NCBI GenBank assembly: GCA_964502815.1 | Contig: CAZCXV010000005.1 | Span: 2,706-66,705 of the forward strand | Direction: 5' to 3' | Source: an uncultured Gammaproteobacteria bacterium | GTDB lineage: Bacteria; Patescibacteriota; Microgenomatia; UBA8517 | DNA length: 64,000 bases | Shown here: positions 11,038 to 63,931 of the stretch, piece after piece | How the letters are laid out: every line of letters begins with the position of its first letter | Numbering within the stretch: the stretch's first letter is position 1 | The notes under the pieces: generated by a model | Told to the model about the DNA's origin: nothing | Database searches by the model: none | Seen by the model: the letters and a program-made list of their open reading frames with translations, nothing else | Translations under genes and position numbers: made by a program

Positions 11038-11043
11038 TTCCTT

Positions 11044-18401: not shown

Positions 18402-19133
18402 CTGCGGGGAAACGGAAAAAATGAAGCGTTACAATTAGTAAATAAGTACTCTCTATCCAATAAAGTCAAACTACTGACCGATTACTAGCTTACTATATCA
18501 GTGGACCGTACCAGAATTGGACTGGTGTCTGCGCAATGCGAATGCGCTGTACTGCCACTATACTAACGGCCCTGATATTCTATTCTACACCATAGTTGGT
18601 AAATAGTATTTTGATATAGTTCAAGGCTAATAATTATAAGATATATATGGGTATGTTTGGAATTACTTGATTAACGCTTTATTTCACGATTAAGCATAAT
18701 TTTTCTTCCGCAATATCTTCTCTTTACTCAAATAATATCAAATATATCACTTACATATCCTATAAGAGAAGTAGTTCAGCGTTTTTCGTAAGAATCTGCG
18801 GAGAATTATTGAGGCTAAGCGGTTAATTCTTTCACACATTATGACCAATCCTAAGGGATAGGTTAATTAACGCGATTTTTACCGACATATTTTAGAGTTA
18901 GCCTTGAGTTTTCGTTAATCTTTTTTTTGTTAGTGATCCATTTTCACCGATTATTTTCAATACTAGAGGATATTTTTTACCATTGTTGGTGTGGTGATAT
19001 ATGAGCTTGTTGTCACTGAGTGTGTTAGAGTGCTAGGAAAGGAAAGGACCATTTTTTACCATGGTTTTGGGATTTGGTTTGAAGAAAGTAGTAGAACTTT
19101 CGATTTACTTGAAAATCTAGTAAGATATGACAA

Positions 19134-21599
19134 ATGCAAGACTCAAGTAAATATAATCATACAGTCATTGAAAAGAAATGGCAAGCCAAGTGGCGTGAAA
19201 CAAAGCTCTATAATCCAGACATTCTTCACACACAAAGAAAGAGTAAATTTTACAATCTCTGGATGTTTCCATATCCTTCTGCAGAAGGATTACATGCAGG
19301 CCATGCTTTTGCTTCAACTGGATCAGATATTGCTGGAAGATTCCAAAGAATGCATGCTAAAACCGTTTTTCAGCCAATAGGTTACGACTCCTTTGGAATT
19401 CATACCGAGAATTTTGCAATTAAGATTGGTGAGACTCCCCAAAAACTATTGGCACGAGCAACTATACACTATGAACAACAATTTAGAAGTATGGGTCATG
19501 GTTATGATTGGACAAGGACTGTAGCCACACATGAGAAGGATTACTACAAATGGACGCAGTGGCTATTTGTTAAGCTATTTAAAGCAGGATTGGCTTACAA
19601 AAAGAAAGCTTTTGTTAACTGGTGTCCTTCCTGTAAAACAGTTCTGTCTGACGAGCAAGTTGTTACTCCCGCTCAGGCAGGTAAGTTTCCACTAGGCTAC
19701 AGCTCCACAGAAGAGGTTCCAGAGGGTATTCGCGTCTGTGAGCGATGTGGTAGTATTCCTGAAAGAAAAGAACTGTCGCAGTGGTTTTTTAGAATTACTA
19801 AATATGCAGACAGACTTTTAGACAATCTTCCCAAGATAGATTGGACAGAAAAAGTCAAAGTGGCTCAGAAAGAATGGATTGGCCGGTCTGAAGGCGCCAA
19901 TGTTAAATTTGACTTAAAAGGGAAAAATCTAAATCTGGAAGTATTTACTACTAGACTTGACACAATTGATGGGGTAACGTTTTTGGTTCTGGCTCCAGAG
20001 AAAGTTGATAGTTTATTGGAAATCATACCTGCAAGTAATTTGAAGAATGTATCTAAATACATTAAAGACTCACTAAATAAATCAGAACAGCAAAGAAAAA
20101 GGGGAGAAAAAGAAAAAACTGGCGTAAATACTGGTCTTCTGGCGATAAATCCCTCTAATTTACAAGAAATCCCTGTTTGGATAGCCGACTATGTTCTTAT
20201 GGATTATGGAACAGGGGTAGTTATGGGTGTGCCTTATTTTGATGATCGAGATAAAGCTTTTGCAGAAAAATTTAGTTTGCCAATTCAGAAAATTAAGCTG
20301 AATAAAGAGATTATAAATGCTAAAAAAATCTGGTTTAAGAAAAAGGTACACTACCATTTGCGGGATTGGTTAATATCAAGACAAAGATATTGGGGGCCGC
20401 CTATTCCAATGATCCATTGCAAAAAGTGTGCGTCTGCAGGTAAGTCTTTCTTTGACCTTCAGAGCGTTACCTTGAAGGTGGAGCAAACAGATTGGAAACA
20501 TGCTGGCTGGTATCCTGAAGAAAATTTGCCTGTAGTATTGCCTGAAATATCAGATTATCAACCGGAAGGAAATGGTAAGGGGCCACTGGCTAATCACCCT
20601 GATTTCTATAAAGTAAACTGCCCAAATTGTGGAGGGGAAGCGGAGCGGGAAACTGACGTTTCAGACACTTTTGTTGATTCTTCCTGGTATTTTCTGCGCT
20701 ATCCAAGTGTAGATGCAGAGAGCAGTAGTAAGATGTCTTTTGATAACAAAATCACTAAGTCTTGGCTGCCTGTAGACTTATACTTTGGGGGAGCAGAACA
20801 CTCGGTACTTCATTTAATGTATGCCAGATTTGTGACGATGGTTTTGTCTGACTTGAAACTTATTGATTTTGAAGAACCTTTCCCAAGGTTTTATGCTCAC
20901 GGCTTAATGATTAAAGACGGTGCCAAGATGAGTAAATCCCGGGGTAATGTAGTCAACCCAGACGAATACATCGAAAAGTTTGGCGCAGATACCCTAAGGC
21001 TTTATTTGATGTTTATGGGGCCTATGGATGGCTTTCCTGACTTTAGGGATACAGGTATGGAAGGTATGCAAAGGTTTGTTAATAAACTTGCAAATATCTT
21101 TTCCCAGACACATGTGGACAAAGAAGATGGTGAGCTAACTGCTAAACTGCATCAAACTATAAAAAAAGTTACTAAAGATGTCGCCAGCTTTAACTACAAC
21201 ACTGCAATTTCAAGCTTGATGGAGTATGTAAATCATCTAAACACCAAAAAGAACTATTCAAAAATGTATTTGCTGCCTTTAGCTCAAATGATTGCACCGT
21301 TTGCACCACACTTAGCAGAAGAAGCCTGGGAACAACTAGGCCAAAACTATTCCATTCACACTTCAGCTTGGCCAGATTACCAGGAAGAGCTGACAAAACC
21401 AGCTGAACTAACAGTGATAGTTCAGGTGGATGGCAAAGTAAGATCGCAGTTGCAAGTAGCAAGCGGGCAAGTGGAAAATAAAAATGAAGTTCTTGCACGA
21501 GCAAAAGATATTAAGAGCATTAAAAAATATCTTGAAGGGGCTAAGATAGCCAAAGAAATCTATGTTCCCGGAAAAGTTATCAATTTTGTTACAAAGTGA
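19134..21599 (+). CDS. leuS: Leucyl-tRNA synthetase
   Basis: HAGHAF (HIGH-type) motif, KMSKSRGN motif, editing-domain insertion, 821 aa. Confidence 0.92.
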   Translation: MQDSSKYNHTVIEKKWQAKWRETKLYNPDILHTQRKSKFYNLWMFPYPSAEGLHAGHAFASTGSDIAGRFQRMHAKTVFQPIGYDSFGIHTENFAIKIGETPQKLLARATIHYEQQFRSMGHGYDWTRTVATHEKDYYKWTQWLFVKLFKAGLAYKKKAFVNWCPSCKTVLSDEQVVTPAQAGKFPLGYSSTEEVPEGIRVCERCGSIPERKELSQWFFRITKYADRLLDNLPKIDWTEKVKVAQKEWIGRSEGANVKFDLKGKNLNLEVFTTRLDTIDGVTFLVLAPEKVDSLLEIIPASNLKNVSKYIKDSLNKSEQQRKRGEKEKTGVNTGLLAINPSNLQEIPVWIADYVLMDYGTGVVMGVPYFDDRDKAFAEKFSLPIQKIKLNKEIINAKKIWFKKKVHYHLRDWLISRQRYWGPPIPMIHCKKCASAGKSFFDLQSVTLKVEQTDWKHAGWYPEENLPVVLPEISDYQPEGNGKGPLANHPDFYKVNCPNCGGEAERETDVSDTFVDSSWYFLRYPSVDAESSSKMSFDNKITKSWLPVDLYFGGAEHSVLHLMYARFVTMVLSDLKLIDFEEPFPRFYAHGLMIKDGAKMSKSRGNVVNPDEYIEKFGADTLRLYLMFMGPMDGFPDFRDTGMEGMQRFVNKLANIFSQTHVDKEDGELTAKLHQTIKKVTKDVASFNYNTAISSLMEYVNHLNTKKNYSKMYLLPLAQMIAPFAPHLAEEAWEQLGQNYSIHTSAWPDYQEELTKPAELTVIVQVDGKVRSQLQVASGQVENKNEVLARAKDIKSIKKYLEGAKIAKEIYVPGKVINFVTK

Positions 21600-22206
21600 T
21601 GAGAAGTTGGCTGGCTTTGCCAAAAAAGGCTGGCTATTTCTTTTGCCCTTGGTTGGTTTACTCCTAATAGGTTTTGGAATTCTGGCTGCTAAAGTTTCTC
21701 TAACTCCTTTAGAAAAAGTGGAGATAATAAGCCCCTCAACACTTCCTGAAAATTTTTCAGAAATCATTGTAGAAGTTACAGGGGAGGTCAATAAACCTGG
21801 AGTATACCACTTACCAAAAGATTCCAGAATTGAAGATCTGCTTTTCAAAGGGGATGGGTTTACCAAAGACGCTGATAGTAAATGGATTACCAAGAATTTA
21901 AATCGGGCGGCAAAACTTGTTGACGGGCAAAAGTTGTATATCCCTAATCAGTCGGAAGTCTTGAGTGCCAGCGTTGTAACTACGGGGTCGACTACATCAA
22001 ACAGTATCATTGGCAATTCTGCAACAAACATCAATATTAACTCTGCAAGCAAAGAACAGTTGGAATCTTTGTCAGGAATAGGCCCTGTTTACGCCCAAAA
22101 GATAATTGACAACAGACCTTACTCAGATATCTCTGAACTGACTTCCAAAAGAATAATTCCTCAAAAAACCTTCGACAAGATAAAAGACCAGATTTCTGTT
22201 TACTGA
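21562..22206 (+). CDS. comEA: Competence protein ComEA (SLBB plus helix-hairpin-helix DNA receptor)
   Basis: N-terminal TM, SLBB-like VTGEVNKPGVYHLP, C-terminal tandem HhH (LESLSGIGPVYAQKIIDNRPY). Start uncertain; it overlaps the leuS 3' end. Confidence 0.7.
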   Translation: MFPEKLSILLQSDEKLAGFAKKGWLFLLPLVGLLLIGFGILAAKVSLTPLEKVEIISPSTLPENFSEIIVEVTGEVNKPGVYHLPKDSRIEDLLFKGDGFTKDADSKWITKNLNRAAKLVDGQKLYIPNQSEVLSASVVTTGSTTSNSIIGNSATNININSASKEQLESLSGIGPVYAQKIIDNRPYSDISELTSKRIIPQKTFDKIKDQISVY

Positions 22207-23270
22207 TGAAAATACGCTATCTTTTTTGGCTTGTCTTAATATCCATTTTTGCTGTCAGATATGTTTACACTAGACCAGTTTATAAAGATGGGGATAGAGT
22301 AAGAATTACAACTAGCGTTAGGTCTGAACCATTAAGATATCCTAATTCCCAATACTTAAAAATATCAGGGTTAAAAACATATTTACCTATATTCCCTGAA
22401 CTTTCGTATGGTGACAATATAATTGTTGAAGGAACAGTTGATAACCAAAAGGGAAGGCTTAAAAATCCAAGTCTTTTAAACGTCCATAAAAGTACTAATT
22501 TATTGTATCACTTTAGACAAAGGCTAATTAACTTTTATAAGTCTTCTCTTCCCCAACCACATTCTTCATTAATTGCCGGGGTTGTTATTGGCGCCAAACA
22601 AAATCTCCCTCCAGATTTTTGGCAAAGTTTGAAAAACAAAGGTCTGGCTCATGTTGTCGTGGCGTCGGGAATGAACATTACTTTAGTGGGAGGATTTCTC
22701 TTAAACTCAACTCTTCCAGCCTTTGGCAGAAAAAAAGCTTTGACGATAGCAGTAGCGGGAATCTGGACCTACGCGTTTGTCTCAGGTTTTGATGCCCCGA
22801 TAGTCAGAGCTGCCATTATGGGAACAATTGCCTTTACGGCTCAACAGTTTGGCAGGGTTAATCTACCTTTAAGGGCTCTGTTTTTGACAGCTTTCTTAAT
22901 GCTTATAGTAAATCCCAGTTGGATATTAGACTTTGGTTTCATTCTTTCGTTTACGGCGACGCTGTCATTGATACTGTTTCAGACTAAAGTTGGTAGATTG
23001 ATATATTTTGTACCAGAATTTTTGAGACAAGATTTGGCGACTACCTTGGCAGCCCAAATAGGAGTTGCTCCAATTTTGTATTTTGCTTTTGGCCAACTGA
23101 ACTTTTTGTCGCCAGTTTATAACCTCCTTGTTCTTTGGACAATTCCTTTAATAACAATATTTGGCTTTATGGGAGGACTAATAGGCTTGATTGTTCCAGA
23201 GGTTGGTAGATTGATACTATTTGTTGTATATCCTTTGACTTCTTGGTTTGTCTTAGTTACAACTAAGTAA
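22206..23270 (+). CDS. comEC: ComEC/Rec2 competence channel, membrane (DUF4131 plus Competence) domains only
   Basis: Polytopic membrane protein with ComEC-type motifs (LAHVVVASGMNITLVGGF). It ends in a stop codon before the metallo-beta-lactamase domain. Confidence 0.65.
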   Translation: MKIRYLFWLVLISIFAVRYVYTRPVYKDGDRVRITTSVRSEPLRYPNSQYLKISGLKTYLPIFPELSYGDNIIVEGTVDNQKGRLKNPSLLNVHKSTNLLYHFRQRLINFYKSSLPQPHSSLIAGVVIGAKQNLPPDFWQSLKNKGLAHVVVASGMNITLVGGFLLNSTLPAFGRKKALTIAVAGIWTYAFVSGFDAPIVRAAIMGTIAFTAQQFGRVNLPLRALFLTAFLMLIVNPSWILDFGFILSFTATLSLILFQTKVGRLIYFVPEFLRQDLATTLAAQIGVAPILYFAFGQLNFLSPVYNLLVLWTIPLITIFGFMGGLIGLIVPEVGRLILFVVYPLTSWFVLVTTK

Positions 23271-23297
23271 GTATTTTGTTGTTAGTAAATAAATAAA

Positions 23298-24149
23298 ATG
23301 AAAATATTTAAAAATTTCGCCGTTTTGTTATTACTTCTTAACGCAACTGTGTGGATTTCGGTATTTGCCTTTCCAAACGACAAACTCCAGCTAATTGCTT
23401 GCGATGTAGGACAAGGGGATGCAATTCTTATTAACTACAAAAGCTTTCAGATATTAACAGATGGAGGACCTGATAATTCTGTATCAAATTGTTTGTCAAA
23501 ATATATGCCTTTTTGGGATAGGACAATTGAAGTAGTTATTTTGACAAATCCAGACAAAGATCACTACCAAGGACTTATTGATGTCCTAAAAACTTACAAA
23601 GTGGAAAACTATATTGAAAGCTATTTACCAGATAGCACTCAAGGATACAAAGTGCTACAAGATACAGTAGGGAGTAGTGGTACTAAGGTGTTAAAACCCC
23701 AAAAAGGCACAAGTATCAGGTATGGTTTGATGTCTTTAGATATAATTTACCCAGAAGGTAGTGTAAAAACTGATTTTAAAAGTCCTCAAAACAACAATTC
23801 AACTGTTACAGTTCTTATATTTGGAGATTTTAAGGCCATATTTACCGGAGATATTGAAGAGGAAGCCTCAGATTATATGGCTCAATATATTAACATTGGA
23901 AAGGTAGACTATATCAAAGTAGCACATCACGGAAGTAAGAATGGAATTACTAAGAGCCTGTTAGAACAATTAAGGCCAAAAATTGCGGTTATCTCTGCGG
24001 GGAAAAAGAATAGTTATGGCCATCCCCACAAAGAAGTCCTAGATATGCTTCAAGAATACCAAGTAAAAATCTATGGCACCTATGACAATGGAGATATAAT
24101 ATTTACAACAGACGGAAAGACTTATCAGAAAGATAAATTTCCATATTGA
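23298..24149 (+). CDS. ComEC-type metallo-beta-lactamase domain protein (separate ORF with its own N-terminal TM)
   Basis: ACDVGQGDAILI...DHYQGL...VAHHGSKNG MBL motifs. 27-nt gap and a different frame from the upstream comEC membrane ORF. Confidence 0.65.
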   Translation: MKIFKNFAVLLLLLNATVWISVFAFPNDKLQLIACDVGQGDAILINYKSFQILTDGGPDNSVSNCLSKYMPFWDRTIEVVILTNPDKDHYQGLIDVLKTYKVENYIESYLPDSTQGYKVLQDTVGSSGTKVLKPQKGTSIRYGLMSLDIIYPEGSVKTDFKSPQNNNSTVTVLIFGDFKAIFTGDIEEEASDYMAQYINIGKVDYIKVAHHGSKNGITKSLLEQLRPKIAVISAGKKNSYGHPHKEVLDMLQEYQVKIYGTYDNGDIIFTTDGKTYQKDKFPY

Positions 24150-25864
24150 GCAAGAAAGATATAAAATTGGCTATGGTTAGGGGTCAACTACTAAAAGTAC
24201 TTAAAGATTTATCTGGGGAAAAGGAAATTCATCTAGAGTTTCCGGAGCGCCAGGAGCATGGGGATTATACAACCAACATAGCTATGATAATGGCAAAAAA
24301 GGAAGATAAAAACCCTAGAGAATATGCCCAAGAACTAGTCAAAAAGTTATCACAAGTTGCTAGTTTGATGGCATTTGTTTCAAAAATAGAAATGGCCGGC
24401 CCAGGCTTTATTAATTTCTTTTTGCAGGAAGAATATATAGTAAAAAAGATAGTAGAAATTGATGAGACTTATGGAACTTCAATTGAAAACGAAGGAAAAG
24501 AGGTTATTGTTGAGTACAGCTCTCCCAATATCGCCAAACCTTTTGGAGTGGGACACCTAAGATCAACCATTATTGGCGATTGCATAGCTAACCTTCTGGA
24601 AGCTACTGGCTGGAAAGTTTACCGCGACAATCATTTGGGAGATTGGGGTACTCAGTTTGGCAAGCAAATCTATGCGATTAAGGCTTGGGGCAATGAAGAG
24701 GATTTGGATAAATCAACAAAACCAATTAAGGATTTAGTAGCTTTGTACGTCAAATTCCACGAAGAAGCCCAAAAAGATCCTTCTTTGGAAGAAGGGGCCA
24801 GAAAATGGTTCAAGAAACTTGAAGAAGGCGATAGTGAAGCCAAAAGGTTGTGGAAAAAATGCATAGACTGGTCTTTTAAGGAATTCTCCAAGCTTTACCA
24901 GAAGCTTGGGGTTAGTTTTACTGAAAATAACGGCTTGGGGTATGGTGAATCTTACTTTGAAGATAAAATGCAACCTATTATTATTGAACTCCAAGAAAAA
25001 GGGTTCCTAAAAGAAAGTCAGGGGGCAAAGCTATTATTTTTCCCCAAAGACAAATATCCACCATTAATGATTCTCAAAAAAGACGGTGCAACACTTTATG
25101 CAACCAGAGATTTAGCAACAGACAAATTTAGACTTGAAAAATATGGCAAAGACATCTTGGTTATTAACGAAGTTGGTGGAGAACAAAGCCTTTATTGGAA
25201 ACAAGTATTTGAGACTGAATACCTACTAGGGTGGTATAAAAAAGGGCAAAGAATCCATATTGGCCATGGGATGATTAGACTGAAGACTGGCAAAATGTCG
25301 ACCAGAAAAGGGACAACAATCCTTTTGGAAGACATCTTAGACGAAGCTGTCAAGCGTGCAACAACTTTGGCTAAGGACGGACAGATTGAAAATTTAAACA
25401 AAGTTTCCCAGCAAGTAGGAATGGGAGCAATAAAATGGAATGATTTAAAAAGAGATTATAAACAAGATATTCTTTTTGATTGGGACGAGATTTTGAATAT
25501 GCAAGGTAACTCTGGTCCATATATTCAGTACACCTATGCCAGAACCCAAAGTATTTTGGCAAAATCTACCCTTCAGGGTGTCACCCTGCAGGAGACAGAG
25601 GGTCTTGAAGCCGAAGAACTATCGGTCGCAAAACATCTAGTTAAGTTCCCAGAAATTGTAAGCTTTGCAGCAATTAATTACTCACCAAATCTGCTTTGTA
25701 ATTATCTTTTTGAACTGGCTCAAAAATTCAATACTTTCTATAATAAACATAAAGTTATAGGTAGCCAGAAAGAGGAGTATAGACTACTTCTGACGAAAGC
25801 CACAGGTCAAGTTCTTAAAAACGGTCTTAACTTACTTGGCATTGAAACCCCAAAAAGAATGTAA
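24146..25864 (+). CDS. argS: Arginyl-tRNA synthetase
   Basis: Class I motifs SSPNIAKPFGVGHLRS and KMSTRKG; C-terminal DALR anticodon-binding domain. TTG start at 24146 overlaps the upstream stop; an alternative ATG lies at 24173. Confidence 0.9.
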   Translation: MSKKDIKLAMVRGQLLKVLKDLSGEKEIHLEFPERQEHGDYTTNIAMIMAKKEDKNPREYAQELVKKLSQVASLMAFVSKIEMAGPGFINFFLQEEYIVKKIVEIDETYGTSIENEGKEVIVEYSSPNIAKPFGVGHLRSTIIGDCIANLLEATGWKVYRDNHLGDWGTQFGKQIYAIKAWGNEEDLDKSTKPIKDLVALYVKFHEEAQKDPSLEEGARKWFKKLEEGDSEAKRLWKKCIDWSFKEFSKLYQKLGVSFTENNGLGYGESYFEDKMQPIIIELQEKGFLKESQGAKLLFFPKDKYPPLMILKKDGATLYATRDLATDKFRLEKYGKDILVINEVGGEQSLYWKQVFETEYLLGWYKKGQRIHIGHGMIRLKTGKMSTRKGTTILLEDILDEAVKRATTLAKDGQIENLNKVSQQVGMGAIKWNDLKRDYKQDILFDWDEILNMQGNSGPYIQYTYARTQSILAKSTLQGVTLQETEGLEAEELSVAKHLVKFPEIVSFAAINYSPNLLCNYLFELAQKFNTFYNKHKVIGSQKEEYRLLLTKATGQVLKNGLNLLGIETPKRM

Positions 25865-25888
25865 CCTTCAAGGTGTCACCTTGAAGGT
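25864..25888. terminator. 25-nt palindrome ACCTTCAAGGTGTCACCTTGAAGGT; bidirectional terminator / REP-like element between convergent argS and a DUF1003 gene
   Basis: Perfect 10-bp stem with a short loop; identical copy at 35976-36000; variants at 25574-25588 and 63872-63892. Confidence 0.55.
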
Positions 25889-26443
25889 GTTTTCGATTTC
25901 CTTAGCCACTTTTTTAACAGGTTGAGTGACAATAGTATTAAAGGTATGTGTTTTAGGCGGGGCAAGTTGCTTTTCCAGCTGTCTTTCAATGTAGGAGGCG
26001 TCAAGATCTTTAATCATATCTTCAAGTTCAGGATCATTCATTAAAATCTTGTGATGTCTATTCAAGTCATGCAACAGCCTTAAAATTTTGGTAATTTCTT
26101 TCTCTGAAATAAGGTTTATCTGTAGATGTAGTTCCTCCCGAAGGGTGGAAACATAACTTTGCCTGTTTTGAGCGATAAGGACGATGATCGTCAAAAATAT
26201 AGCCTCCAAGGAAACTATGGTCGTCAGCATAGTAAAAGGATAGTGATCAAAAATAGGAAGAGGGGTTAAACCTGTATTTATAACAATCCAACTGCTAAAA
26301 AAAAGGGCATTAATGATAAAAAACTCAATACTGCCAAAAAAGGAAGCTACTTGGTCGGCAAATTTTAGAAACCAATTTCTTGTTTTGAGTTCCTTAGCTT
26401 CAAAGCTTTTAATCAATCTGTAGGTTGAGTGAGTATTAGACAT
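25868..26443 (-). CDS. DUF1003-family membrane protein
   Basis: Two TM helices with the FDHYPF...IAQNRQ signature typical of PF06210-like proteins, then a charged C-terminal coiled coil. Confidence 0.55.
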   Translation of the reverse strand: MSNTHSTYRLIKSFEAKELKTRNWFLKFADQVASFFGSIEFFIINALFFSSWIVINTGLTPLPIFDHYPFTMLTTIVSLEAIFLTIIVLIAQNRQSYVSTLREELHLQINLISEKEITKILRLLHDLNRHHKILMNDPELEDMIKDLDASYIERQLEKQLAPPKTHTFNTIVTQPVKKVAKEIENTFKVTP

Positions 26444-26468
26444 GCCTCTAATATAATATTAACTCTTT

Positions 26469-26477
26469 TGGTATAAT
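26469..26477 (+). promoter_or_regulatory. Extended -10 promoter element TGgTATAAT
   Basis: TG at 26469-70, TATAAT 26472-26477, 8 nt before ATG 26486; no SD, so a near-leaderless transcript. Confidence 0.4.
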
Positions 26478-26485
26478 TTACAAAT

Positions 26486-27772
26486 ATGGAATGTAAATTA
26501 GCAGAGCTTGCAAATAGACTGAGGGTTATTACCGTTCCCATGCCATCACTTGAGTCAGCAACTGTTACTGTTTGGGTGGGGACTGGTTCCAGGTATGAAA
26601 CTCAAAAGATTTCGGGCATCAGCCATTTTTTGGAGCATATGGTTTTTAAAGGCAGCAAAAGAAGGCCTTCTGCCAGGGAAATTGCCGAAGCCGTGGATAG
26701 CATTGGCGGAGAGTTTAATGCCGGGACTTCTAAGGATTGGACTAACTTCTATATTAGAAGCAGATCTGCCAGTCTTGAGACAGCCTTTGATGTTCTTTCC
26801 GATATGGTTTTGGCTCCGCTTCTCAAAAAAGATGATATTGAAAGGGAGAAGGGAGTAATAGTTGAAGAAATTGCTATGTATGAGGATACGCCAATGCAGA
26901 ACATTGGCAATATCTTTGAGCAGCTAATTTTTTCTGGCAACCCTCTGGGAATGGATATTGCTGGGGACAAAAAAACAGTCAGAAGTTTAACTAGGCAGGA
27001 TTTCGTAGATTATCGAAATAGTCATTATCACCCGGACAATATTGTCTTGACTGTTTCTGGAGGGATAAGTCAAAAGCAAGTATTTAAGCTGGCAGAAAAA
27101 TACTTTGGCAGTCTGGAGGAGACAAAAAAGCAAAAGACGAATGATTTTAAAAAATTTAGTCACAAACAAGATAAGCCAGAAGTAAAACTCAAAACCAAGA
27201 CTAATTCAGAACAAGGTCATTTTATTTTGGGCTTTAGAGGGCTTCCTAGGGGTCACAAAGACAGATTTGCAGAAGGAGTGCTGTCTTCCATTTTGGGTGG
27301 AGGCATGTCAAGCCGGATGTTCACTGAGATCAGAGAGAAAAGGGGACTAGCATATGCTGTACACTCAGACGCTGAGCATTACGGCGACACTGGCTACTTT
27401 GGCATCTATGCGGGAGTATTGGTAACAAAGATTGAGGATGCTATAAAAGTAATCTTAGAGGAGACAGACAAGTTCGCATTGGGCAAGGCAGATTTGACGG
27501 ATCAGGAACTATCTAAAGCTAAAGAATATATTAGAGGACATATGGCATTGGTATTAGAAAACACCAAGGCAGTGAATTCTTTTTTTGGCATGAAGGAGCT
27601 TTTAGAAGAAAAACAAGAGACTCCTGAGGAAGTATTTGAGAGTATTGCCAAAGTCACCAAGGAAGATGTCTACAATATTGCCAAAAAGCTCTTCAAGAAA
27701 GATAGCTTGAACCTAGGTATAATTGGCCCCTACAAAGATCAAGACAAGTTTGCTAAAATGCTACTAAACTAA
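26486..27772 (+). CDS. M16 family zinc peptidase (insulinase-like)
   Basis: Inverted zinc motif HFLEHMVFKG (HxxEH) plus a distal Glu; 428 aa. Confidence 0.85.
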   Translation: MECKLAELANRLRVITVPMPSLESATVTVWVGTGSRYETQKISGISHFLEHMVFKGSKRRPSAREIAEAVDSIGGEFNAGTSKDWTNFYIRSRSASLETAFDVLSDMVLAPLLKKDDIEREKGVIVEEIAMYEDTPMQNIGNIFEQLIFSGNPLGMDIAGDKKTVRSLTRQDFVDYRNSHYHPDNIVLTVSGGISQKQVFKLAEKYFGSLEETKKQKTNDFKKFSHKQDKPEVKLKTKTNSEQGHFILGFRGLPRGHKDRFAEGVLSSILGGGMSSRMFTEIREKRGLAYAVHSDAEHYGDTGYFGIYAGVLVTKIEDAIKVILEETDKFALGKADLTDQELSKAKEYIRGHMALVLENTKAVNSFFGMKELLEEKQETPEEVFESIAKVTKEDVYNIAKKLFKKDSLNLGIIGPYKDQDKFAKMLLN

Positions 27773-27774
27773 AT

Positions 27775-28239
27775 ATGGAACAAACCTGCGTGCTTCTAAA
27801 ACCTGACTCACTCCAGAGAGGGCTTGTTGGTGAAATAATTCACCGCTTTGAAAGAAAAGGTCTAAAGCTTAAGGCCATAAAAATGATGACCATGTCAGAA
27901 GAGCTTATCAATAATTGGTATGCTCATCACCGAGAAAAAGATTTTTTTAAAGATATCCAAAGATTTATGACCTCAACACCTATTGTTGCAATGATTTGGG
28001 AAGGTGTTGGAGCAATTGCTGCAGTCAGAAAGATTGTGGGTGTAACTAAAGGCAGAGAAGCAGAAGGTGGATCTATTAGAGGAGATTTTGGCATGAGCGG
28101 ATCCCAGAATCTTATACACGCTTCAGACTCACAAGAATCAGCCAGAAAGGAAATTGGTTTAATTTTTGCAAAAGAGGAAATATTTAATTACCAAAGCGCA
28201 GTTGATTGTCTTATTTATAGCCCGAAAGAAATAGTTTAA
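27775..28239 (+). CDS. ndk: Nucleoside diphosphate kinase
   Basis: LLKPD, catalytic His in NLIHASDS, 154 aa. Confidence 0.9.
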   Translation: MEQTCVLLKPDSLQRGLVGEIIHRFERKGLKLKAIKMMTMSEELINNWYAHHREKDFFKDIQRFMTSTPIVAMIWEGVGAIAAVRKIVGVTKGREAEGGSIRGDFGMSGSQNLIHASDSQESARKEIGLIFAKEEIFNYQSAVDCLIYSPKEIV

Positions 28240-28853
28240 TCTTCCACTTCTCGTTCTCGAAGCATCTCTTTTTGAAACTCCTCGGTAATTAAGGTTGTAG
28301 TTTGGCTAAAGATATCTGTATATAAGTCACTGTTTTTTTGGAAACCACTAACAATATTTTTAACCAGTAGTCCACTAATAATGATTAAAGAAACCAGTGT
28401 CAAAGCTCCTACAATAGCTTGTGCAGGCCTTTTGACTATTACAACAGTACTTGCTGCCATATCATGCCAAGTCTGTTGATTTGGGTCTCTCAACATCCAC
28501 CAAAAACCCAGGCCAAAAAGAGGAGATGAAATAAATTTGGCAATAAACTCTCTAAAGAAGGCCTTCTTGAAAGTTAACCTATGGCCATCTAAATCACTAA
28601 TTTCAATTCCAGTCAAAAGTTTACCTATAGATCCGCCAAATTGGGAAACAAGGTAGGCTTGTAAAAGAGCAATAAGTGTTCCTGATAGGAAAAGAAATAC
28701 TAAAATATTTAATACCGAATTAAATATTTGAGGGAGGTCGGTGGCAGATGCAATACCGACAAGTAAAAGCAAATAAAGAGTACTTCTAACCAAAAACTCA
28801 ATTAGGTGAGCTATGACTCTTAAAGCTGGTGAAGCATATTTTTTGCTGTCCAT
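28236..28853 (-). CDS. RDD family membrane protein
   Basis: Three or four TM segments, conserved W...D...TWHDMAASTVVI C-terminal signature. Confidence 0.6.
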   Translation of the reverse strand: MDSKKYASPALRVIAHLIEFLVRSTLYLLLLVGIASATDLPQIFNSVLNILVFLFLSGTLIALLQAYLVSQFGGSIGKLLTGIEISDLDGHRLTFKKAFFREFIAKFISSPLFGLGFWWMLRDPNQQTWHDMAASTVVIVKRPAQAIVGALTLVSLIIISGLLVKNIVSGFQKNSDLYTDIFSQTTTLITEEFQKEMLREREVED

Positions 28854-29924
28854 TTATTTTATTTCCCTTTTTTCTAACTCTTCAAACCATAAATTCCAAT
28901 TTGAGGCAGAAAAGACTACTATCAAAGCCCGTAAAAAGATGTTTGCCAAACCAAAGATAATTAGTAGCATTGCCAAGAAGGCTACGCTTCCCCAATAGTC
29001 TGTTAACGAAAAGTTGGAAATATCTTTTGAGATGGCATTTACTAAAGGCAAGCCAAAGATAAAACCAGGGATACCAAGAACGATTAAGAGAACGATGTTG
29101 GTTACACAGCCAAAAGCAACTCCAGAAATGCCTGAAATTATCCCCATCAAAATAGTTGGGAAAAAGTTTCTCAGTGTTAACCTCCAACCCTTTTTCCAAG
29201 CCTTCCAAGCAGGTAGGGAATCATAGATTAAGGCTCTTTGAGATAAAACTGCAGTTAAACCAAGCTGTAAGAATAGCCAAATAAAGAAGATAGCTAGTGG
29301 AATAATGGCCAATCCTCCTAGATTACTGTTTGATATCGAGACTACAAACCCTGCCCCAAAGGCAACTATGAAAATTGCTAAGAAGATTGCTATTAGGACG
29401 ACAGTTTGGATGAGCGTTAATACAATCATACCCTTGATGTTTTTAATTCCCAAAGGAGAAGAGTTTTTTAAAGTTACTTCTTTTTCTTGGTTTGCCAGTC
29501 TAAGACCGGCGATTAAAGAGCCGTTTAGCCAAGCAGACAGAACCCAAGAAATAACGATTCCCAAAACTGCCGACCCAAGGACGCCTATAAATAGTAGAAA
29601 CCAGGTTTGGGGAGAAACACTAGTCAACCAATCGAGAAAAGAATTAGTAAAAGTTTCCAATACTTCTTTCGATTGGTTGAGATTATTTGAGTTTTCCAAC
29701 TTTTGGAAAGGCAAAGGTGAAGATATGGGGAGAGGTGGGGTTTGACTGCTGTTTTGATTACCAAAATTCTGCCCAATTCTGCCAAAGTTGCCACCGCCAG
29801 AGCCCCCAGCCGTTGCTGCAAGCGCTAGTCCATACACCCAGAGCCATTTGTATTTTTTGCTAATTTCAATTGACCTATTGATAATTTTTCCGTAATCAGC
29901 CATATACAGATAACATTTTAGCAA
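28854..29924 (-). CDS. Polytopic membrane protein of unknown function (Gly-rich N-terminal loop)
   Basis: At least six predicted TM helices, GGSGGGNFGRIGQNFGNQN loop; no recognisable catalytic motif. Confidence 0.5.
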   Translation of the reverse strand: MLKCYLYMADYGKIINRSIEISKKYKWLWVYGLALAATAGGSGGGNFGRIGQNFGNQNSSQTPPLPISSPLPFQKLENSNNLNQSKEVLETFTNSFLDWLTSVSPQTWFLLFIGVLGSAVLGIVISWVLSAWLNGSLIAGLRLANQEKEVTLKNSSPLGIKNIKGMIVLTLIQTVVLIAIFLAIFIVAFGAGFVVSISNSNLGGLAIIPLAIFFIWLFLQLGLTAVLSQRALIYDSLPAWKAWKKGWRLTLRNFFPTILMGIISGISGVAFGCVTNIVLLIVLGIPGFIFGLPLVNAISKDISNFSLTDYWGSVAFLAMLLIIFGLANIFLRALIVVFSASNWNLWFEELEKREIK

Positions 29925-29938
29925 AAAGAAGATAAACT

Positions 29939-30379
29939 TTAAAGTTTGATAACCACAGTACCGGCAATTTTGTCGTGCCAGCCTTGTCTTTTGTCATCCC
30001 AAATTATCCACAGGTAGCCAAGAAGAAGAACTAGACTCGAGATAAATCTGCCGACTATTTCTCTTAGGAAAGCAGTTACATAATCAGGATTTTGGCTAGT
30101 TCCAACCTTGACTACTTTTAAACCCAAAGCCTTCTTGCCAAGAGTTTGGCCAGTAGAGCCTGTAAAATAAATAAGATAACCCCAAGCAACAACTACGCCG
30201 ACTAATGTGCCAAAAGCCTGCAGCTTCATTGCTGCAAAAGCCATCGAGATAATTGAACTGGCAATCATTATCACAACAACATCAATTAAATAAGCCAGAA
30301 GCCTAAGTCCAAAGTTTGCGTATTTTTGATTTTCTGTTGCCATTTGTTTAGTGTAGGAAATTTCTAAGGTACTTGTCAA
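29939..30379 (-). CDS. RDD family membrane protein
   Basis: Arg-Asp-Asp positions within conserved blocks LLAYLIDVVV...GQTLGKKALGLKVV...QGWHDKIAGTVVI. Confidence 0.7.
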   Translation of the reverse strand: MTSTLEISYTKQMATENQKYANFGLRLLAYLIDVVVIMIASSIISMAFAAMKLQAFGTLVGVVVAWGYLIYFTGSTGQTLGKKALGLKVVKVGTSQNPDYVTAFLREIVGRFISSLVLLLGYLWIIWDDKRQGWHDKIAGTVVIKL

Positions 30380-32388: not shown

Positions 32389-32445
32389 AGTTTTAATGCA
32401 AGACTTAAGTAACTTTATCCTACTAAATGAGATATAATCAAGTAG

Positions 32446-33258
<813 letters not shown>

Positions 33259-33279
33259 ACAAATAACTTAAGTGAAAAT

Positions 33280-35001: not shown

Positions 35002-35007
35002 AAAAAC

Positions 35008-35604
35008 ATGTTCAATCTGCCTACGATTTTAATCGCACTTGAGAGTCTAATTATTGTCTGGCTTTTTTTCTCGCTTCAAAAAATTACTTCTGACTTTTCG
35101 AGATTAAAAACGAAAGAAAATTTATTGAAAGATGCCGATTATCAAAGGCGAAAGGCAGAAAAAATTCTAGAAAATGCCAAGGAAAAATATGCACAAGTAA
35201 TTTCTCAGTCTTACAAAAAAGCCCAGCAAGTGATAGCTGACGCCAAAGTCTTTAATGAAGAAACTAAGGAAAAAGTCCTGGGAGAGTTGGGCAAATCGAT
35301 TCAAAACATAACTAGCGAGATCAAAAACGAAACCTTGGAAGAAGTTAGGGATTTTGGTCAAGAATTAAAAGAGGAGGTAAAAGTTCAGGAAGAAGCAAGC
35401 CAAAAAGTCATTGCTGACAAATATGACCAGGTTAATGCCGAAATTGAACAGTATAGAAAAAACAAAGTAACTGAAATAGATAAAAGTGCAGTCAAAGCCG
35501 TGGAAGAAGTAACTAAAAATATTTTGACAAAAAGTTTAGACCTTTCAGGCCATGAAGAATTCATATTAGAGGCGCTAGAAAATGCTAAAAAAAATCTACA
35601 CTAG
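35008..35604 (+). CDS. atpF: F0F1 ATP synthase subunit b
   Basis: Single N-terminal TM followed by a long charged coiled coil; first gene of the atp cluster. Confidence 0.7.
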   Translation: MFNLPTILIALESLIIVWLFFSLQKITSDFSRLKTKENLLKDADYQRRKAEKILENAKEKYAQVISQSYKKAQQVIADAKVFNEETKEKVLGELGKSIQNITSEIKNETLEEVRDFGQELKEEVKVQEEASQKVIADKYDQVNAEIEQYRKNKVTEIDKSAVKAVEEVTKNILTKSLDLSGHEEFILEALENAKKNLH

Positions 35605-36007
35605 GCTGGAAGTTGATGAAGTTCTTTCAGAGTTAAATCTTTTGAAAGTAAGCCTATCAAAAACTGACAATTCTTTTGACGAAGCTTTGAAAAATAAAGT
35701 GCGGCTGGATTTGGCTGATACGCCAAAAGATGTAGATCAGATTAGCCAGTTAATAAAACAAATTGAGTCTCTAAAGGTAGTAGAACTAGCGTTGGCAATC
35801 AAACCTACACAAAATTTTATTGAGAAAATACTTACTTTTGTCGAAACAAATTTCGGTCCAGACATTGTTTTAGATTTGAAATTTAACCCCGATTTAATCG
35901 CGGGAGCACAGGTAATATATGGTGGCAAGTATTTTGATTTTAGCCTCAAAAAATCGTTGGAGGATTATTTCAAAAACCTTCAAGGTGTCACCTTGAAGGT
36001 AGAGTAG
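35582..36007 (+). CDS. atpH: F0F1 ATP synthase subunit delta (OSCP), short
   Basis: Position between b and alpha, all-helical 141 aa, C-terminal GAQVIYGGKYFDFSLK as in the OSCP C-domain. The 3' end is overlapped by the 25-nt palindrome. Confidence 0.55.
   Translation: MLKKIYTRLEVDEVLSELNLLKVSLSKTDNSFDEALKNKVRLDLADTPKDVDQISQLIKQIESLKVVELALAIKPTQNFIEKILTFVETNFGPDIVLDLKFNPDLIAGAQVIYGGKYFDFSLKKSLEDYFKNLQGVTLKVE
35976..36000. repeat. Second exact copy of the palindrome ACCTTCAAGGTGTCACCTTGAAGGT (encodes LQGVTLKVE at the atpH C-terminus)
   Basis: Identical 25-mer to 25864-25888. Confidence 0.6.
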
Positions 36008-37481
36008 GAGAAAAATATGGGAAAATACATAGACTATTTAAATAAAACTGGCGAGATTGGAACCGTCATTTCAGTCATTCACGCAATTGTTTACGTCGAA
36101 GGTCTGCCTGGCACTCAAACTCACGAACTGATTGTTTTTGAAGAGGGGCAAATGGGTTATGCCCTAAGCCTGACTGAAGAAGCCGTCGAAGTCCTCCTTT
36201 TGTCAGATGGTGGAGTAAGGGTAGGGACAAAAGCGACCAGAACCAACGAGTTTTTGGAAATAGAAATAGGCCTTGAGTTACTCGGCAAGCACATAAATCC
36301 TTTGGGGGAGATAGTGGATGGAAACCAAATTAAGTATTTAAGTGGTCAGAGTGAAAAAAGAAAGATTGATATTTCCCCCCCGCCAATTTTGGCGCGCGAA
36401 GTAATCAAAGATGGTTTTGAAACTGGAATTACTTTAGTTGATCTGACAGTCCCTTTAGGTAAGGGCCAAAGGGAATTGGTGATTGGGGATAGAAAAACCG
36501 GCAAGACGGGTTTTTTGCAGGCAACCATGATCCATCAAGCCCAGATGGGAACTATTTGTATCTATGCCACTATGGGCAGACGTGCTCAGGATGTCAAAAG
36601 GTTTGAAGAAAACTTAAATAAAAAAGGCACTACCCAAAATGTAATCATCGTTTCGGCAACTTCGCCAGAGGCAGCAGGCTTGATTTTTATCACTCCTTAT
36701 GTCGCTATGACCATAGCGGAGTATTTCAGAGACCTTGGAAAAGATGTCTTAGTAATTCTTGACGACTTGACAAATCATGCTAAATACTGGCGGGAAATTT
36801 CACTTCTAGCCAAAAGATTTCCCGGCAGAAGCTCTTACCCTGGAGATATTTTCTATATCCACGCCAGACTTCTCGAACGCGCGGGAAAATTCAAAAAAGG
36901 CTCGATAACCGCGCTCCCAGTTGCCGAATCCGTCCTTGGCGATTTGTCAGGTTATATCCAGACAAATCTGATGGCTATGACCGACGGCCATATCTTTTTT
37001 GATTCCGATTTCTACAATCAAGGCAGGCGCCCAGCAATTAACCCTTTTCTTTCGGTCACTCGTGTTGGCCGCCAAGCCCAATCAGCGCTAGTTAAAGACC
37101 TAAGCCGGGAAGTGAGTACTTTCATGGTTCGCTATAAAAAGATGCAGGAATTCGTCCATTTTGGCGCCGAACTCAATGAAGAAGTCAGGCGAGCCTTGGC
37201 AATGGGGGACAGACTAGTTGCTTTTTTTGATCAGCCAACTGGCGGGGGAATGGATTTAAATGTTTCAGTTATTTTAACTGCTTTTTTGTGGGCAGGCTTT
37301 TGGGAAGAAGAAGAAATAGCTCAAATGAAAGCGCAAATCAGAATGTGTTTTGACTATTATCATACAAATCCAGATTACAAAGTTAAAGTAAATGAAATTA
37401 TCTCAAAAGCAAATACTTTTGCCGATTTAGTTACTAAAGTTCGCGAAAATAAAAATGATTTCATCTCATATCTTTTTGCCG

Positions 37482-39768
<2,287 letters not shown>

Positions 39769-39769
<1 letters not shown>

Positions 39770-54319: not shown

Positions 54320-55324
54320 ATGCCCAAACAAATAATAATATTACCAATTATTGTAGTTGTGGTGTTTTTTGTATTTGGAAATAAATTTCTTCAGAAACAA
54401 TCAAATTCTATTAATTCTGTTGAAAAAGTCAGAGTGGGCATCTCAAAAGTTGCACCCGAACTCTCAAGTCTTATTGTGATTGCAAACAATAAAGGTTATT
54501 ATAAAGAAGAGGGATTAGAAGTTATATTAACCAATGAAGAAAACGGTATAATAGGTCAACAAAACCTTCTTGCAAACAAAGAAGACATCATAACCACTTC
54601 GGAGTTTGGTTTTGTTAGGAATAGTTTTTCTGATTCTTCCTCAAAAATAATTGCCACAATTGATCGTGTAATTTTCATTGACGTTATTGCCAGACGTGAT
54701 AAGGGGATTAGTGTCCCAGCTGATCTAAAGAATAAAAAAATAGGTTATGTTTCCAAAACATCTCTTGAATATTTCTTGTCGAAATTTTTAACTTTTAACA
54801 ATATGTCGCTTAGTGATGTCAAATCTATGGATCTTACTTTTATTGAATCGCAAGAAGCCCTAGCCACGGGCAAAATCGACGCAGTGGTGGTGAATGATCT
54901 ATTTGCCTATCAAATAAATAAGACGCTTGGCACCAATGGTGTTAGTTGGGATGCCCAGAGTGGTCAAGATGTTTTTTCATCAGTTGTCAGCACGGATGAA
55001 TTTATAGAGTCTCATCCGCAGGAAGTTGAGCGTTTTCTAAGAGCCCTCGTACGTGCAGAACAGTTTGTAAAAACGGATCCCGATCAAGTGAAACAAATTG
55101 TAAAGGATTATTTTCATTTGGAGCAAGAATATTTTGACCAATCGTGGGGTAAAAACAACTTCACCATATCACTTGACCAATCTTTATTGTTGATAATGGA
55201 GGATGAGGCAAGATGGGTAATAGCAAACAAACTTACTGATAAGACAAAAATCCCCGATTATATTGACTTAATCTACCCAGATGCCTTGCGTAAAGTGAAA
55301 TTAGAAGGTGTCACGCTTTATTAA
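54320..55324 (+). CDS. Membrane-anchored NMT1/THI5-SsuA-like periplasmic binding protein
   Basis: N-terminal TM, two-lobed solute-binding fold resembling the sulfonate/nitrate/bicarbonate SBP family (ISKVAPELSSLIVIANNKGYYKEEGLEV...). Confidence 0.65.
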   Translation: MPKQIIILPIIVVVVFFVFGNKFLQKQSNSINSVEKVRVGISKVAPELSSLIVIANNKGYYKEEGLEVILTNEENGIIGQQNLLANKEDIITTSEFGFVRNSFSDSSSKIIATIDRVIFIDVIARRDKGISVPADLKNKKIGYVSKTSLEYFLSKFLTFNNMSLSDVKSMDLTFIESQEALATGKIDAVVVNDLFAYQINKTLGTNGVSWDAQSGQDVFSSVVSTDEFIESHPQEVERFLRALVRAEQFVKTDPDQVKQIVKDYFHLEQEYFDQSWGKNNFTISLDQSLLLIMEDEARWVIANKLTDKTKIPDYIDLIYPDALRKVKLEGVTLY

Positions 55325-55350
55325 TTTATGCTATTGTTATATACAAAAAT

Positions 55351-63621: not shown

Positions 63622-63870
63622 TTGAGCTTAAGACTACATCAGAATATGGATAAAGATATCAAACCCAAGAAAAGACTGAGGATTGACGATCTTCCAGACT
63701 TACTAACTGTCAGAGAAGTAGCGGAGTTTTTGCGTGTTTCTCCCTTAACCATCAAAAGATGGGGAAAAAGAGGAAAGCTTACTCCTATTAGAATTAATTC
63801 CAGGGGAGACAGAAGGTATAAAAAAGAAGCAGTTCTTTGGCTACTTGGCATGACTCCAAAAGAGGACTAA
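63622..63870 (+). CDS. Stand-alone excisionase/MerR-family HTH protein (82 aa), paralogue of the giant-protein N-termini
   Basis: LLTVREVAEFLRVSPLTIKRWGKRGKLTPIRINSRGDRRY. Confidence 0.6.
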   Translation: MSLRLHQNMDKDIKPKKRLRIDDLPDLLTVREVAEFLRVSPLTIKRWGKRGKLTPIRINSRGDRRYKKEAVLWLLGMTPKED

Positions 63871-63871
63871 C

Positions 63872-63892
63872 TTGCAGGGTCTCACCCTGCAG
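63872..63892. terminator. Palindrome TGCAGGGT-CTC-ACCCTGCA, variant of the recurrent GGTGTCACC family
   Basis: 8-9 bp stem immediately after the stop of the HTH gene. Confidence 0.45.
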
Positions 63893-63931
63893 GTACTACT
63901 ATACAATTCCAAACTTTGATATATTGTAAAG

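Follow-up and report, generated by a model that had tools for sequence, protein, structure and literature searches.

A family of REP-like palindromes in a groundwater Microgenomates bacterium, probably mobile and linked in related genomes to a RAYT-type transposase

Background

Repetitive extragenic palindromic (REP) elements and the REP-associated tyrosine transposases (RAYTs) have been studied almost only in Proteobacteria, where the elements are extragenic and where it is debated whether they are parasites or domesticated helpers. In this work we analyse a stretch of 64,000 nucleotides (nt) of contig CAZCXV010000005.1 (positions 2,706 to 66,705 of the forward strand; hereafter "the window"), which comes from a groundwater Microgenomates (Levybacteria-like) bacterium, has a GC content of ~39%, and carries dispersed copies of a palindrome of 24-25 nt. 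We propose that these palindromes are REP elements, i.e. non-autonomous hairpins that spread within the genome and that are tied, in related genomes, to a RAYT-type transposase of the Y1/HUH class; we put the probability of this explanation at about 0.85.

The REP/RAYT systems of E. coli, Pseudomonas and Stenotrophomonas, including the arrangements known as REPtrons and REPINs, share many features with the family described here. Their palindromes are similarly short (~23-25 nt; those of S. maltophilia are 23 nt long with a 3-nt loop, PMC8266576) and are scattered in large numbers, frequently at the 3' ends of open reading frames (ORFs) (PMC3733652). In both cases a Y1/HUH gene, found for our family in related genomes, is flanked by cognate hairpins whose type co-varies with the enzyme, and the layout of transposase and hairpins at these related loci matches the REPtron arrangement of Proteobacteria (PMC8266576, PMC3733652). 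Further common features are filled and empty sites, the HUH and tyrosine motifs, a predicted fold like that of TnpA-REP (4ER8 in the PDB), inverted doublets 40-90 nt apart in two relatives (L070, 41 nt; L068, 86 nt; L087, 86-87 nt), and copies kept at orthologous positions over long divergence. Most copies of our family, and all those of the window, are singlets.

On the other hand, several features set the family apart from the described REPs. The stem is longer (11 bp, perfect or with one mismatch), about three quarters of the copies lie in frame within genes, whereas the described REPs are extragenic, and most of 120 homologues of the transposase contain two in-frame cognate hairpins inside their own ORF. 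The host belongs to the candidate phyla radiation (CPR), and its relatives encode a protein that scores below the NCBIfam cutoff for RAYTs. Intragenic and stop-proximal REPs have already been described (PMC3733652). In the literature that we searched on palindromic repeats and RAYTs, we found no account of such a system in Patescibacteria and none of cognate hairpins embedded in a transposase ORF, and one may exist elsewhere in either case.

Other small repeats resemble our family in part. Intragenic REPs and the Rickettsia palindromic elements (RPEs) are likewise inserted in frame into housekeeping genes, are tolerated in loops and termini, and occupy orthologous sites (PMC3733652; PMC1779305). 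Compared to the RPEs, our family has a unit of only 24-25 nt, coding for no more than 8-9 residues, and a cognate Y1 gene can be identified for it in relatives. The RPE-1-type elements measure ~100-150 bp, and we know of no transposase associated with RPEs. The transposases of the IS200/IS605 group (IS608, ISDra2) share the fold with HUH and tyrosine motifs and recognise subterminal hairpins on single-stranded DNA; however, in these elements the transposase is enclosed by two hairpin ends that differ from each other, and the whole moves together, whereas here the hairpin alone is dispersed, and the RAYT-like genes show no sign of multi-copy spread, apart from a single genome that has two distinct genes, each matched to a hairpin subfamily of its own. 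The small dispersed repeats (SDRs) of filamentous cyanobacteria, reportedly described by Elhai and colleagues in 2008, are said to be 21-27 nt long, to have hairpin potential, and to show evidence of mobility in the form of filled and empty sites; to our knowledge, no transposase has been associated with them. Their very small size is similar to that of our palindromes, while their sequence and host phylum are unrelated. Finally, the DNA uptake sequences of Neisseria, which form inverted-pair terminators, have in common with our family a hairpin motif at gene ends and coding-region copies in preferred frames, but they differ from it in ~10 times higher density, and the co-varying arms, the indel polymorphism and the transposase association set our family apart from them. 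Among all these, the family works like the REP/RAYT systems and is best filed with them.

Results and Discussion

Copies of the palindrome in the window

The 25-mer ACCTTCAAGGTGTCACCTTGAAGGT is found, letter for letter, at 25864..25888 (copy A) and 35976..36000 (copy B), both on the plus strand. It is a perfect palindrome with 12-nt arms and one central base, the longest perfect palindrome of the window, and with up to 3 mismatches no occurrence is expected by chance (100 dinucleotide-preserving shuffles). A search of the window for the core AGGGTGTCACCCT with up to 2 mismatches returns 7 matches against 0.97 expected. Copy A is located between the convergent genes argS and DUF1003, and copy B at the 3' end of atpH, where it encodes NLQGVTLKV. 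Two variants, which differ from the 25-mer on both arms with pairing kept, complete the set of four good copies: copy C (25569..25593, plus strand; CCCTTCAGGGTGTCACCCTGCAGGA) is in frame inside argS, in a variable loop where the DALR domain begins (TLQGVTLQE), and copy D (63870..63894, plus strand; ACTTGCAGGGTCTCACCCTGCAGGT) has as its first base the final A of the TAA that ends a small MerR/HTH_17 gene. A relaxed scan additionally revealed one decayed copy E (20455..20479, plus strand; ACCTTCAGAGCGTTACCTTGAAGGT) inside leuS (DLQSVTLKV), with intact outer arms and a mutated inner left arm. Hence the 64 kb contain four good copies and a decayed one, two of the five internal to genes and three touching stop codons. 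The family unit comprises ~24-25 nt with an 11-bp stem and a 3-nt loop, with the consensus A-CCTNCARGGT(C/G)TCACCYTGNAGG-T.

A possible further relic, not established as such, is found at 55303..55325 (plus strand), at the end of a gene for an NMT1-like binding protein (LEGVTLY*). Only the 10-nt core AAGGTGTCAC of the half-site 55305-55317 matches, there is no second arm, and 13 of the 23 consensus positions agree; ~0.1 such half-site matches are expected by chance, so that we consider its membership of the family doubtful. The first-pass annotation of this DNA had reported the identical 25-mer at its two sites together with their gene context, and had regarded a dispersed palindrome of this kind as not due to chance; both points are confirmed by the shuffles and by Pfam. 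The variants that it listed are real, but the extents given for two of them (25574-25588 and 63872-63892) were too short, the decayed leuS copy was missed, and the half-site listed at 55308-55318 is the doubtful one-armed match.

The centre is oriented alike in all five copies (GTC/CTC on the plus strand), their host genes are all on the plus strand, and the GC skew is positive in every 4-kb bin of the window (1-64000). Enzymes of the IS200/IS605 type are strand-biased relative to replication; five copies are too few for significance. The window also contains other perfect palindromes (50210-50236, 62179-62199, 11034-11058, 28703-28729 and 12137-12160) with stems of 9-11 nt, e.g. AGTTCTGGAGGATACACCTCCAGAACT, each of which occurs once in the window and shows no sequence relationship to the REP family. 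An Rfam search of the window found no family at the palindromes; its only matches are three tRNA genes, all on the minus strand (18502-18572, 41306-41377, 45876-45947).

The family in related genomes

A multi-copy family exists in a Microgenomates/Patescibacteria clade. A scan with the degenerate 23-mer CYTNCARGGTNTCACCYTGNAGG, taking one genome per species, yielded 105 stretches. Four low-GC metagenome-assembled genomes of Patescibacteria contain 17-19, 10-11, 8-9 and 5-7 copies in their retrieved parts, several other Microgenomates contain 1-4, and almost all remaining genomes have single matches, mostly in one conserved high-GC gene of Burkholderiales. By k-mer search and comparison of copy number in relatives, which are among the checks named in the first-pass annotation, the palindrome is multi-copy in several related Patescibacteria genomes. 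The density is ~1 copy per 5-16 kb; in each of the mismatch classes 0-3 none is expected from shuffles, and the distribution peaks sharply at perfect matches. Sequence beyond ~25 nt is not conserved between copies, so that the unit is the hairpin alone. No match to the palindrome was found in the viral contigs searched.

The pattern of variation argues that the hairpin, rather than a particular sequence, is what has been preserved. Among 34 distinct variants, 9 of the 11 stem pairs are found changed on both sides, and 93.9% of the cells are paired, a percentage that is inflated by the preselection of these variants for at least 9 of 11 pairs, so that the pair types are the informative part. 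The inner pairs are of the types GGT..ACC, GGA..TCC and GGC..GCC, the subfamilies are GGT..ACC, GGA..TCC and GGGC..GCCC, and the outer arms are of the types CCTT/AAGG, CCTG/CAGG, CTTCG/CGAAG and TTAAC/GTTAA. The stem is perfect or has a single mismatch at pair 5/21. Compensatory changes have thus preserved the stem.

The searches brought up further repeats. One is a low-GC (0.36-0.42) family with longer arms, GTG-CCTGCAGGGTGTCACCCTGCAGG-CAC, found in the metagenome at loci L115, L116, L121, L128, L130, L135, L137, L139, L144, L146, L152, L165 and L167; beside it, often ~30 nt off, stands a second palindrome, TTCC(C/T)CAAGGCG(T/A)CGCCTTG(A/G)GGAA, and RAYT-like genes are present on L141 and L154. 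At the high-GC loci (L112, L117, L119, L120; Rubrivivax, Aquabacterium, Undibacterium) the 23-mer CCTGCA(A/G)GGTGTCACC(C/T)TGCAGG occurs once per genome, in many Burkholderiales, always in one conserved stretch (...gtgacgatgaa(g/a)t / tagttcatcaccatgtagac...); presumably it is ordinary coding sequence, unrelated to the CPR repeat.

Association with a Y1/HUH transposase

In related genomes the palindromes are associated with a gene of ~215 residues that codes for a RAYT-like protein. At three loci (L009:5461-6093, L049:4504-5157 and L099:3184-3864) this gene matches Pfam Y1_Tnp above the gathering score and has copies of the palindrome both on its flanks and inside. Tblastn revealed further RAYT-like genes beside cognate hairpins in L087 (with its near-duplicate L162), L006, L154 and L141. 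Altogether, cognate copies flank a RAYT-like gene at eight related loci (L009, L049, L099, L006, L087, L154, L177 and L178), and at most of these they are also found inside the gene. L177 and L178 were picked by protein homology alone, not by the DNA pattern; nevertheless, their hairpins (CCTGCAGGGCCAGGCCCTGCAGG and CCTACAAGGAGAGTCCTTGAAGG, respectively) lie ~30 nt upstream of the start, at two places within the ORF, and at the stop codon or directly after it. In the CAZGNX genome there are two RAYT-like genes, one flanked by CCTACRAGGTCTCACCTTGMAGG and the other by CCTACGAGGACTCTCCTCGYAGG. Across loci, the hairpin core changes together with the transposase.

The hairpins internal to the ORF (L177:9945-10705, L178:9949-10677, L099:3158-3889; proteins P0125-P0244) have fixed positions, one at about residue 50 (LQGx[S/T/A]LK) and one at about residue 150 (LP[S/T][G/R]xx[L/P]xG). 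Among 120 homologues, the first site reads LQG-x-[S 39 / T 30 / A 25 / P 1]-L-K, and since serine, threonine, alanine and proline are all encoded by NCC codons, this is how the site should vary with the GGN...NCC pair kept intact; most of the homologues also have the second site. The transposase ORF therefore has two internal and two border hairpins, and all four vary in step with the copies dispersed in the genome. One homologue, P0228, is the only one with an internal LQGVTLK; it was rejected as the cognate transposase of the window's palindromes, its centre being GTA and not GTC.

As to the protein itself, the HUH motif LMPNHFHL and the tyrosine motif YIHxNP are invariant in 29 homologues and align with the HUH motif of ISDra2 and with its C-terminal "KYI" segment, where the catalytic tyrosine of ISDra2 lies. 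An AlphaFold 2 model of the protein (pLDDT 84, with the first hairpin-encoded stretch in a low-confidence loop) has as its top Foldseek match 4ER8, the E. coli TnpA-REP bound to a REP hairpin (E 1.4e-6, target-normalised TM 0.64), which ranks ahead of the IS608 and ISDra2 TnpA structures. A search of Patescibacteria for homologues gave 7229 proteins at E <= 1e-10, named just "transposase".

In contig 19 of the JBBTWO genome (L009:4617-7633), the RAYT-like gene is located between dprA and comM, and both neighbours carry in-frame REP copies. The products of dprA and comM act in the processing of single-stranded DNA in transformation.

Gain and loss of copies

Comparison of close strains and of orthologues shows that copies are gained or lost. 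The clearest case is copy B. The gene atpH (ATP synthase delta/OSCP; 35582..36007, plus strand; Pfam) is 11 residues longer through copy B and the adjacent bases; its OSCP domain reaches to about residue 131 of 141, and the residues contributed by copy B (...NLQGVTLKVE*) lie past the domain end. A search with the AtpH protein revealed a 130-residue variant that ends in ...EDYF, encoded on contigs L170 and L171, which are 98.5% identical to window 34989-36486 outside a single 37-nt gap. The gap takes out copy B and ~12 adjacent bases (36001..36012, plus strand), which contain the new atpH stop (TAG, 36005-36007) and a Shine-Dalgarno-like GGAG (36007-36010), 7 nt before the atpA ATG (36017); in L170 and L171 the atpH TAA stands 5 nt before the atpA ATG. 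The boundaries of the indel and the target site are ambiguous owing to flanking A/T runs. Because the OSCP profile ends at the same point as the AtpH of the empty site, gain in the window lineage seems likelier than loss.

Two further insertions are found in relatives: the L099 transposase gene has an exact in-frame insertion of 24 nt (CCTACAAGGTCTCACCTTGCAGGT, 8 codons) relative to two orthologues, and, compared with three orthologues, the LeuRS of CAZGNX contains a REP doublet as an insertion of at least ~17 residues. Synteny links the window to JBBTWO contig 19, the two being 68-72% identical. The copies in the argS loop and in leuS are common to both: copy C has an orthologous copy with a flipped centre (GAG), and copy E is orthologous to a perfect copy (L019 6231). 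JBBTWO has no copy at the orthologous argS-end junction. Within the population of the window itself, no empty site for copy A was found in other samples, as all five other contigs sampled from that population carry the copy.

According to our model, an enzyme of the RAYT (TnpA-REP) type would recognise the folded hairpin on single-stranded DNA and would cut and join the DNA beside it. The RAYT-like protein probably catalyses the spread of the hairpins, and the window's genome presumably still encodes such a gene. Copies persist in intergenic DNA, across stop codons, and in frame within protein loops that tolerate them, where they are read in stop-free frames only.

Copies within genes and at gene ends

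Of 60 family copies, 45 lie wholly inside long ORFs (by simple long-ORF calling), no fewer than 20 of them in genes verified by Pfam, namely those for ArgRS, LeuRS, MetRS, HisRS, a class II synthetase, ComM, DprA, the 5'-3' exonuclease domain of Pol I, and the transposase itself. The translated copies read LQG[L/V/E]TLK, P[S/T][G/R]SH[L/P]xG or, rarely, xFKV[R/T]PC, and other copies are untranslated. The combinations of frame and orientation used by the 45 intragenic copies are exactly those without stop codons, and the orientation relative to the host gene is unbiased (25 same, 20 opposite), which is the pattern that purifying selection on insertions at arbitrary positions would leave. This filter for stop-free frames explains the GVTL peptide to which the first-pass annotation had drawn attention: the same DNA is read in the first or the second of these ways or is untranslated, and the frames are the stop-free ones. 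The claim that GVTL recurs at C-termini was also overstated, atpH being the only clear C-terminal case. Since a copy that brings a stop codon or a frameshift survives only at the very 3' end of a gene, such copies cluster near stop codons; copies within a few bases of stop codons are A, B and D of the window and those of L009 (6062), L010, L022, L028 and L049.

The argS gene (arginyl-tRNA synthetase; 24146..25864, plus strand; Pfam tRNA-synt_1d, DALR_1 and Arg_tRNA_synt_N), which hosts copy C and lies to the left of copy A, has its copy in a loop found to be hypervariable in a set of 120 homologues, and the element in this loop is read in different frames and orientations in different genomes; in a 60%-identical ArgRS the same loop contains the same core in another frame ("ARSHLA"), with outer arms that are different but complementary. 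The leuS gene (leucyl-tRNA synthetase; 19134..21599, plus strand; aligned with Pfam-supported LeuRS genes in L109 and L006) has copy E in an inserted loop, as judged against another LeuRS. At the junction of the convergent genes, copy A starts with the final A of the argS TAA and supplies the last 6 codons and the stop codon of the DUF1003 gene (25868..26443, minus strand; Pfam; ...ENTFKVTP*). Copy D is immediately downstream of the small MerR/HTH_17 DNA-binding gene (63622..63870, plus strand; Pfam).

The ArgRS loop of copy C (P0005-P0104; window 25540-25620) is in addition a hotspot of other repeat-like peptide insertions in CPR genomes (e.g. ...DSGQARMTSFWG..., ...VMPNSFQHLERTGILKPASPRGEQVQDDK..., ...SDFDIR(V/T)SNL..., ...HPELVSGS...MLKLVQHDK...), which look like translations of other palindromic repeat families. 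The longest argS ORF opens with TTG (572 aa), while in two database entries the identical protein begins 9 codons further downstream (563 aa), and the true start (24146-24172) is uncertain.

Alternative explanations

The palindromes could be primarily intrinsic terminators, or hairpins that stabilise the 3' ends of mRNA, selected at the ends of genes. Three of the five copies of the window start at or overlap a stop codon, the RNA hairpins are stable (-16 to -18 kcal/mol, z ~-4; copy A -16 to -18 on both strands, copy D -18), and copy A, between convergent genes, is terminator-like on both strands, with the weak T tracts GTTTTCGATT and TACATTCTTT. Moreover, the described REPs often lie no more than 20 bp from the 3' end of an ORF and are considered to act as RNA elements (PMC3733652). 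However, in a terminator scan of 20000-39999 copy B scored nothing; it has no T tract, a Shine-Dalgarno-like GGAG and the atpA start lie in the next 16 nt, and termination there would cut the ATP synthase operon. Copy D, which lies outside the scanned range, has no T tract by direct reading of the sequence. The 45 intragenic copies of the 60, in both orientations, would truncate their genes if they terminated transcription, and the association with a transposase would be left unexplained. We therefore regard this explanation as improbable. The earlier description of the repeat as a mobile or selected REP or terminator element holds as far as the REP-like character and the probable mobility are concerned, given the transposase link and the indels; its designation as a terminator family at gene ends is not supported, as only copy A is (weakly) terminator-like and ~75% of the copies are intragenic. 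By analogy with the described REPs, 3'-end structure as a secondary effect of extragenic copies is plausible, and the hairpins at the 3' ends of argS/DUF1003 and of the HTH gene may have such a secondary role at transcript ends or as stabilisers.

Several observations weigh against the interpretation of the palindromes as inserted REP elements, and they are best considered together. With respect to the enzyme, no RAYT-like gene was found by tblastn in the 64-kb window, so the link rests on related genomes; a metagenome scan for the host's own transposase recovered only the argS-end locus of the window (L147) and an exact 23-mer on L143. The best NCBIfam match of the RAYT-like proteins is indeed "REP-associated tyrosine transposase" (NF047646), but the scores of 37-43 bits fall short of the cutoff, which is 80. 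A single-sequence search of the PDB with the protein gave nothing relevant, and a profile search found only ISDra2 TnpA (E 0.03), which is weak by sequence alone. With respect to the hairpin, the unpaired GTAG/CGTC tetranucleotide at the foot of the described REPs is missing: the flanks from -8 to -1 and from +1 to +8 contain no conserved bases in 57 copies, and GTAG occurs only within the 3' arm, in the 20 of the 57 copies that have T at position 21. With respect to insertion, the direction of the atpH change is not proven, and the difference from JBBTWO at the argS end amounts to ~10-11 nt plus substitutions, with no clean 25-nt gap. The loop of element-bearing ArgRS is no longer than element-free loops. 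In JBBTWO, comEC contains the subfamily palindrome ACAAGGAGTCTCCTTGAAGT (L027:3001-3025; likewise at L098 3424), while the window (~23915-23945, in the beta-lactamase domain of comEC) has a non-palindromic sequence of equal length that encodes the same peptide, GIT[R/K]SLLE; the two differ only by synonymous or conservative substitutions, with no indel, and this case is left unexplained by the insertion model. Finally, at orthologous sites the arms are 86-100% identical, as compared to 51-73% for the flanking coding DNA, which a purely selfish, decaying insertion does not predict and which implies homogenisation or selection; the centre meanwhile flips with the arms unchanged (GTC versus GAG in ArgRS, CTC versus GAG in HisRS). 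We take this as suggesting that homogenisation or selection may act on established copies.

The exact 23-mer on L143 (190-260), an unrelated metagenome contig of GC 0.44, lies within a longer symmetric context, tgtcata-CCTTCAAGGTGTCACCTTGAAGG-taccttgaaggtatgaca.

The conserved arms and the equal-length replacement in ArgRS and ComEC are what one would expect if the motif were not inserted at all, but were a binding or uptake signal maintained by selection or drive, such as an inverted-pair DNA uptake sequence or a site similar to parS, NBS or matS. Copies in both orientations, with preferred frames in variable loops, are also known for uptake sequences, and the position of the JBBTWO RAYT-like gene between dprA and comM might be seen in the same light. 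Yet a symmetric site would hold a single half-site consensus, whereas here the arms co-vary, with double changes at 9 of 11 pairs, and several hairpin subfamilies coexist within one genome. The clean indels of 24 and 37 nt speak against such a signal as well, as does the density of ~1 copy per 5-16 kb. Known uptake sequences occur at ~1 per kb. Neither is there a place in this scheme for the specific association with a co-varying Y1 transposase, and we consider it very improbable.

Selection might alternatively act on the peptide LQGVTL at C-termini or in loops, with the palindrome in the DNA as a by-product. Three sites of the window share the ...LQGVTL... frame, a fourth encodes EGVTL, and leuS has retained LQSVTLKV while its DNA palindrome has decayed; however, two of the window's copies are untranslated in that frame (the DUF1003 gene reads TFKVTP), copies elsewhere in the family read P[ST][GR]SH[LP]xG or LQGETLK or are intergenic, glycine and threonine are always encoded by GGT and ACC in this genome of 39% GC, and the frame used in the ArgRS loop differs from genome to genome, which makes the probability of this scenario negligible. 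Chance origin is rejected by the shuffles, and a CRISPR repeat, a dif/Xer site, an attC site and the hairpin of a diversity-generating retroelement were dismissed, as there is no array and no integrase context, the centre is 1-3 nt, and the unit 25 nt.

Within the REP explanation that we favour, it is possible, with odds clearly below even, that the transposase and the hairpins form a long-lived, co-evolving and perhaps domesticated system rather than plain selfish DNA. According to the abstracts of studies on REPIN-RAYT systems, these are mostly vertically inherited and last for millions of years in their lineages, which would be consistent with the conservation of established copies. The essential genes that host copies of our family encode four or five aminoacyl-tRNA synthetases, ComM, DprA, the exonuclease domain of Pol I, and the delta subunit of ATP synthase. 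Were the system domesticated, the transposase gene may hold master copies from which REPs are templated, the enzyme may regulate itself by binding its own gene or mRNA, and the near-unchanged copies in essential genes may be kept by homogenisation or selection.

Implications

If the palindromes are REP elements, the streamlined CPR genomes would possess a compact version of the REP/RAYT system, in which intergenic space is scarce and most copies are consequently translated within essential proteins. They would offer a natural test of how much hairpin-encoded peptide essential proteins tolerate, and would explain odd short insertions and C-terminal tails in alignments of CPR proteins. The repeats probably also explain part of the fragmentation of CPR assemblies; for many of the listed transposase homologues, the longest contig is just ~1 kb. 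The filled and empty alleles of atpH provide a ready strain marker, and the co-varying hairpins embedded in the transposase ORF would give a direct handle on how the specificity of enzyme and hairpin stays matched.

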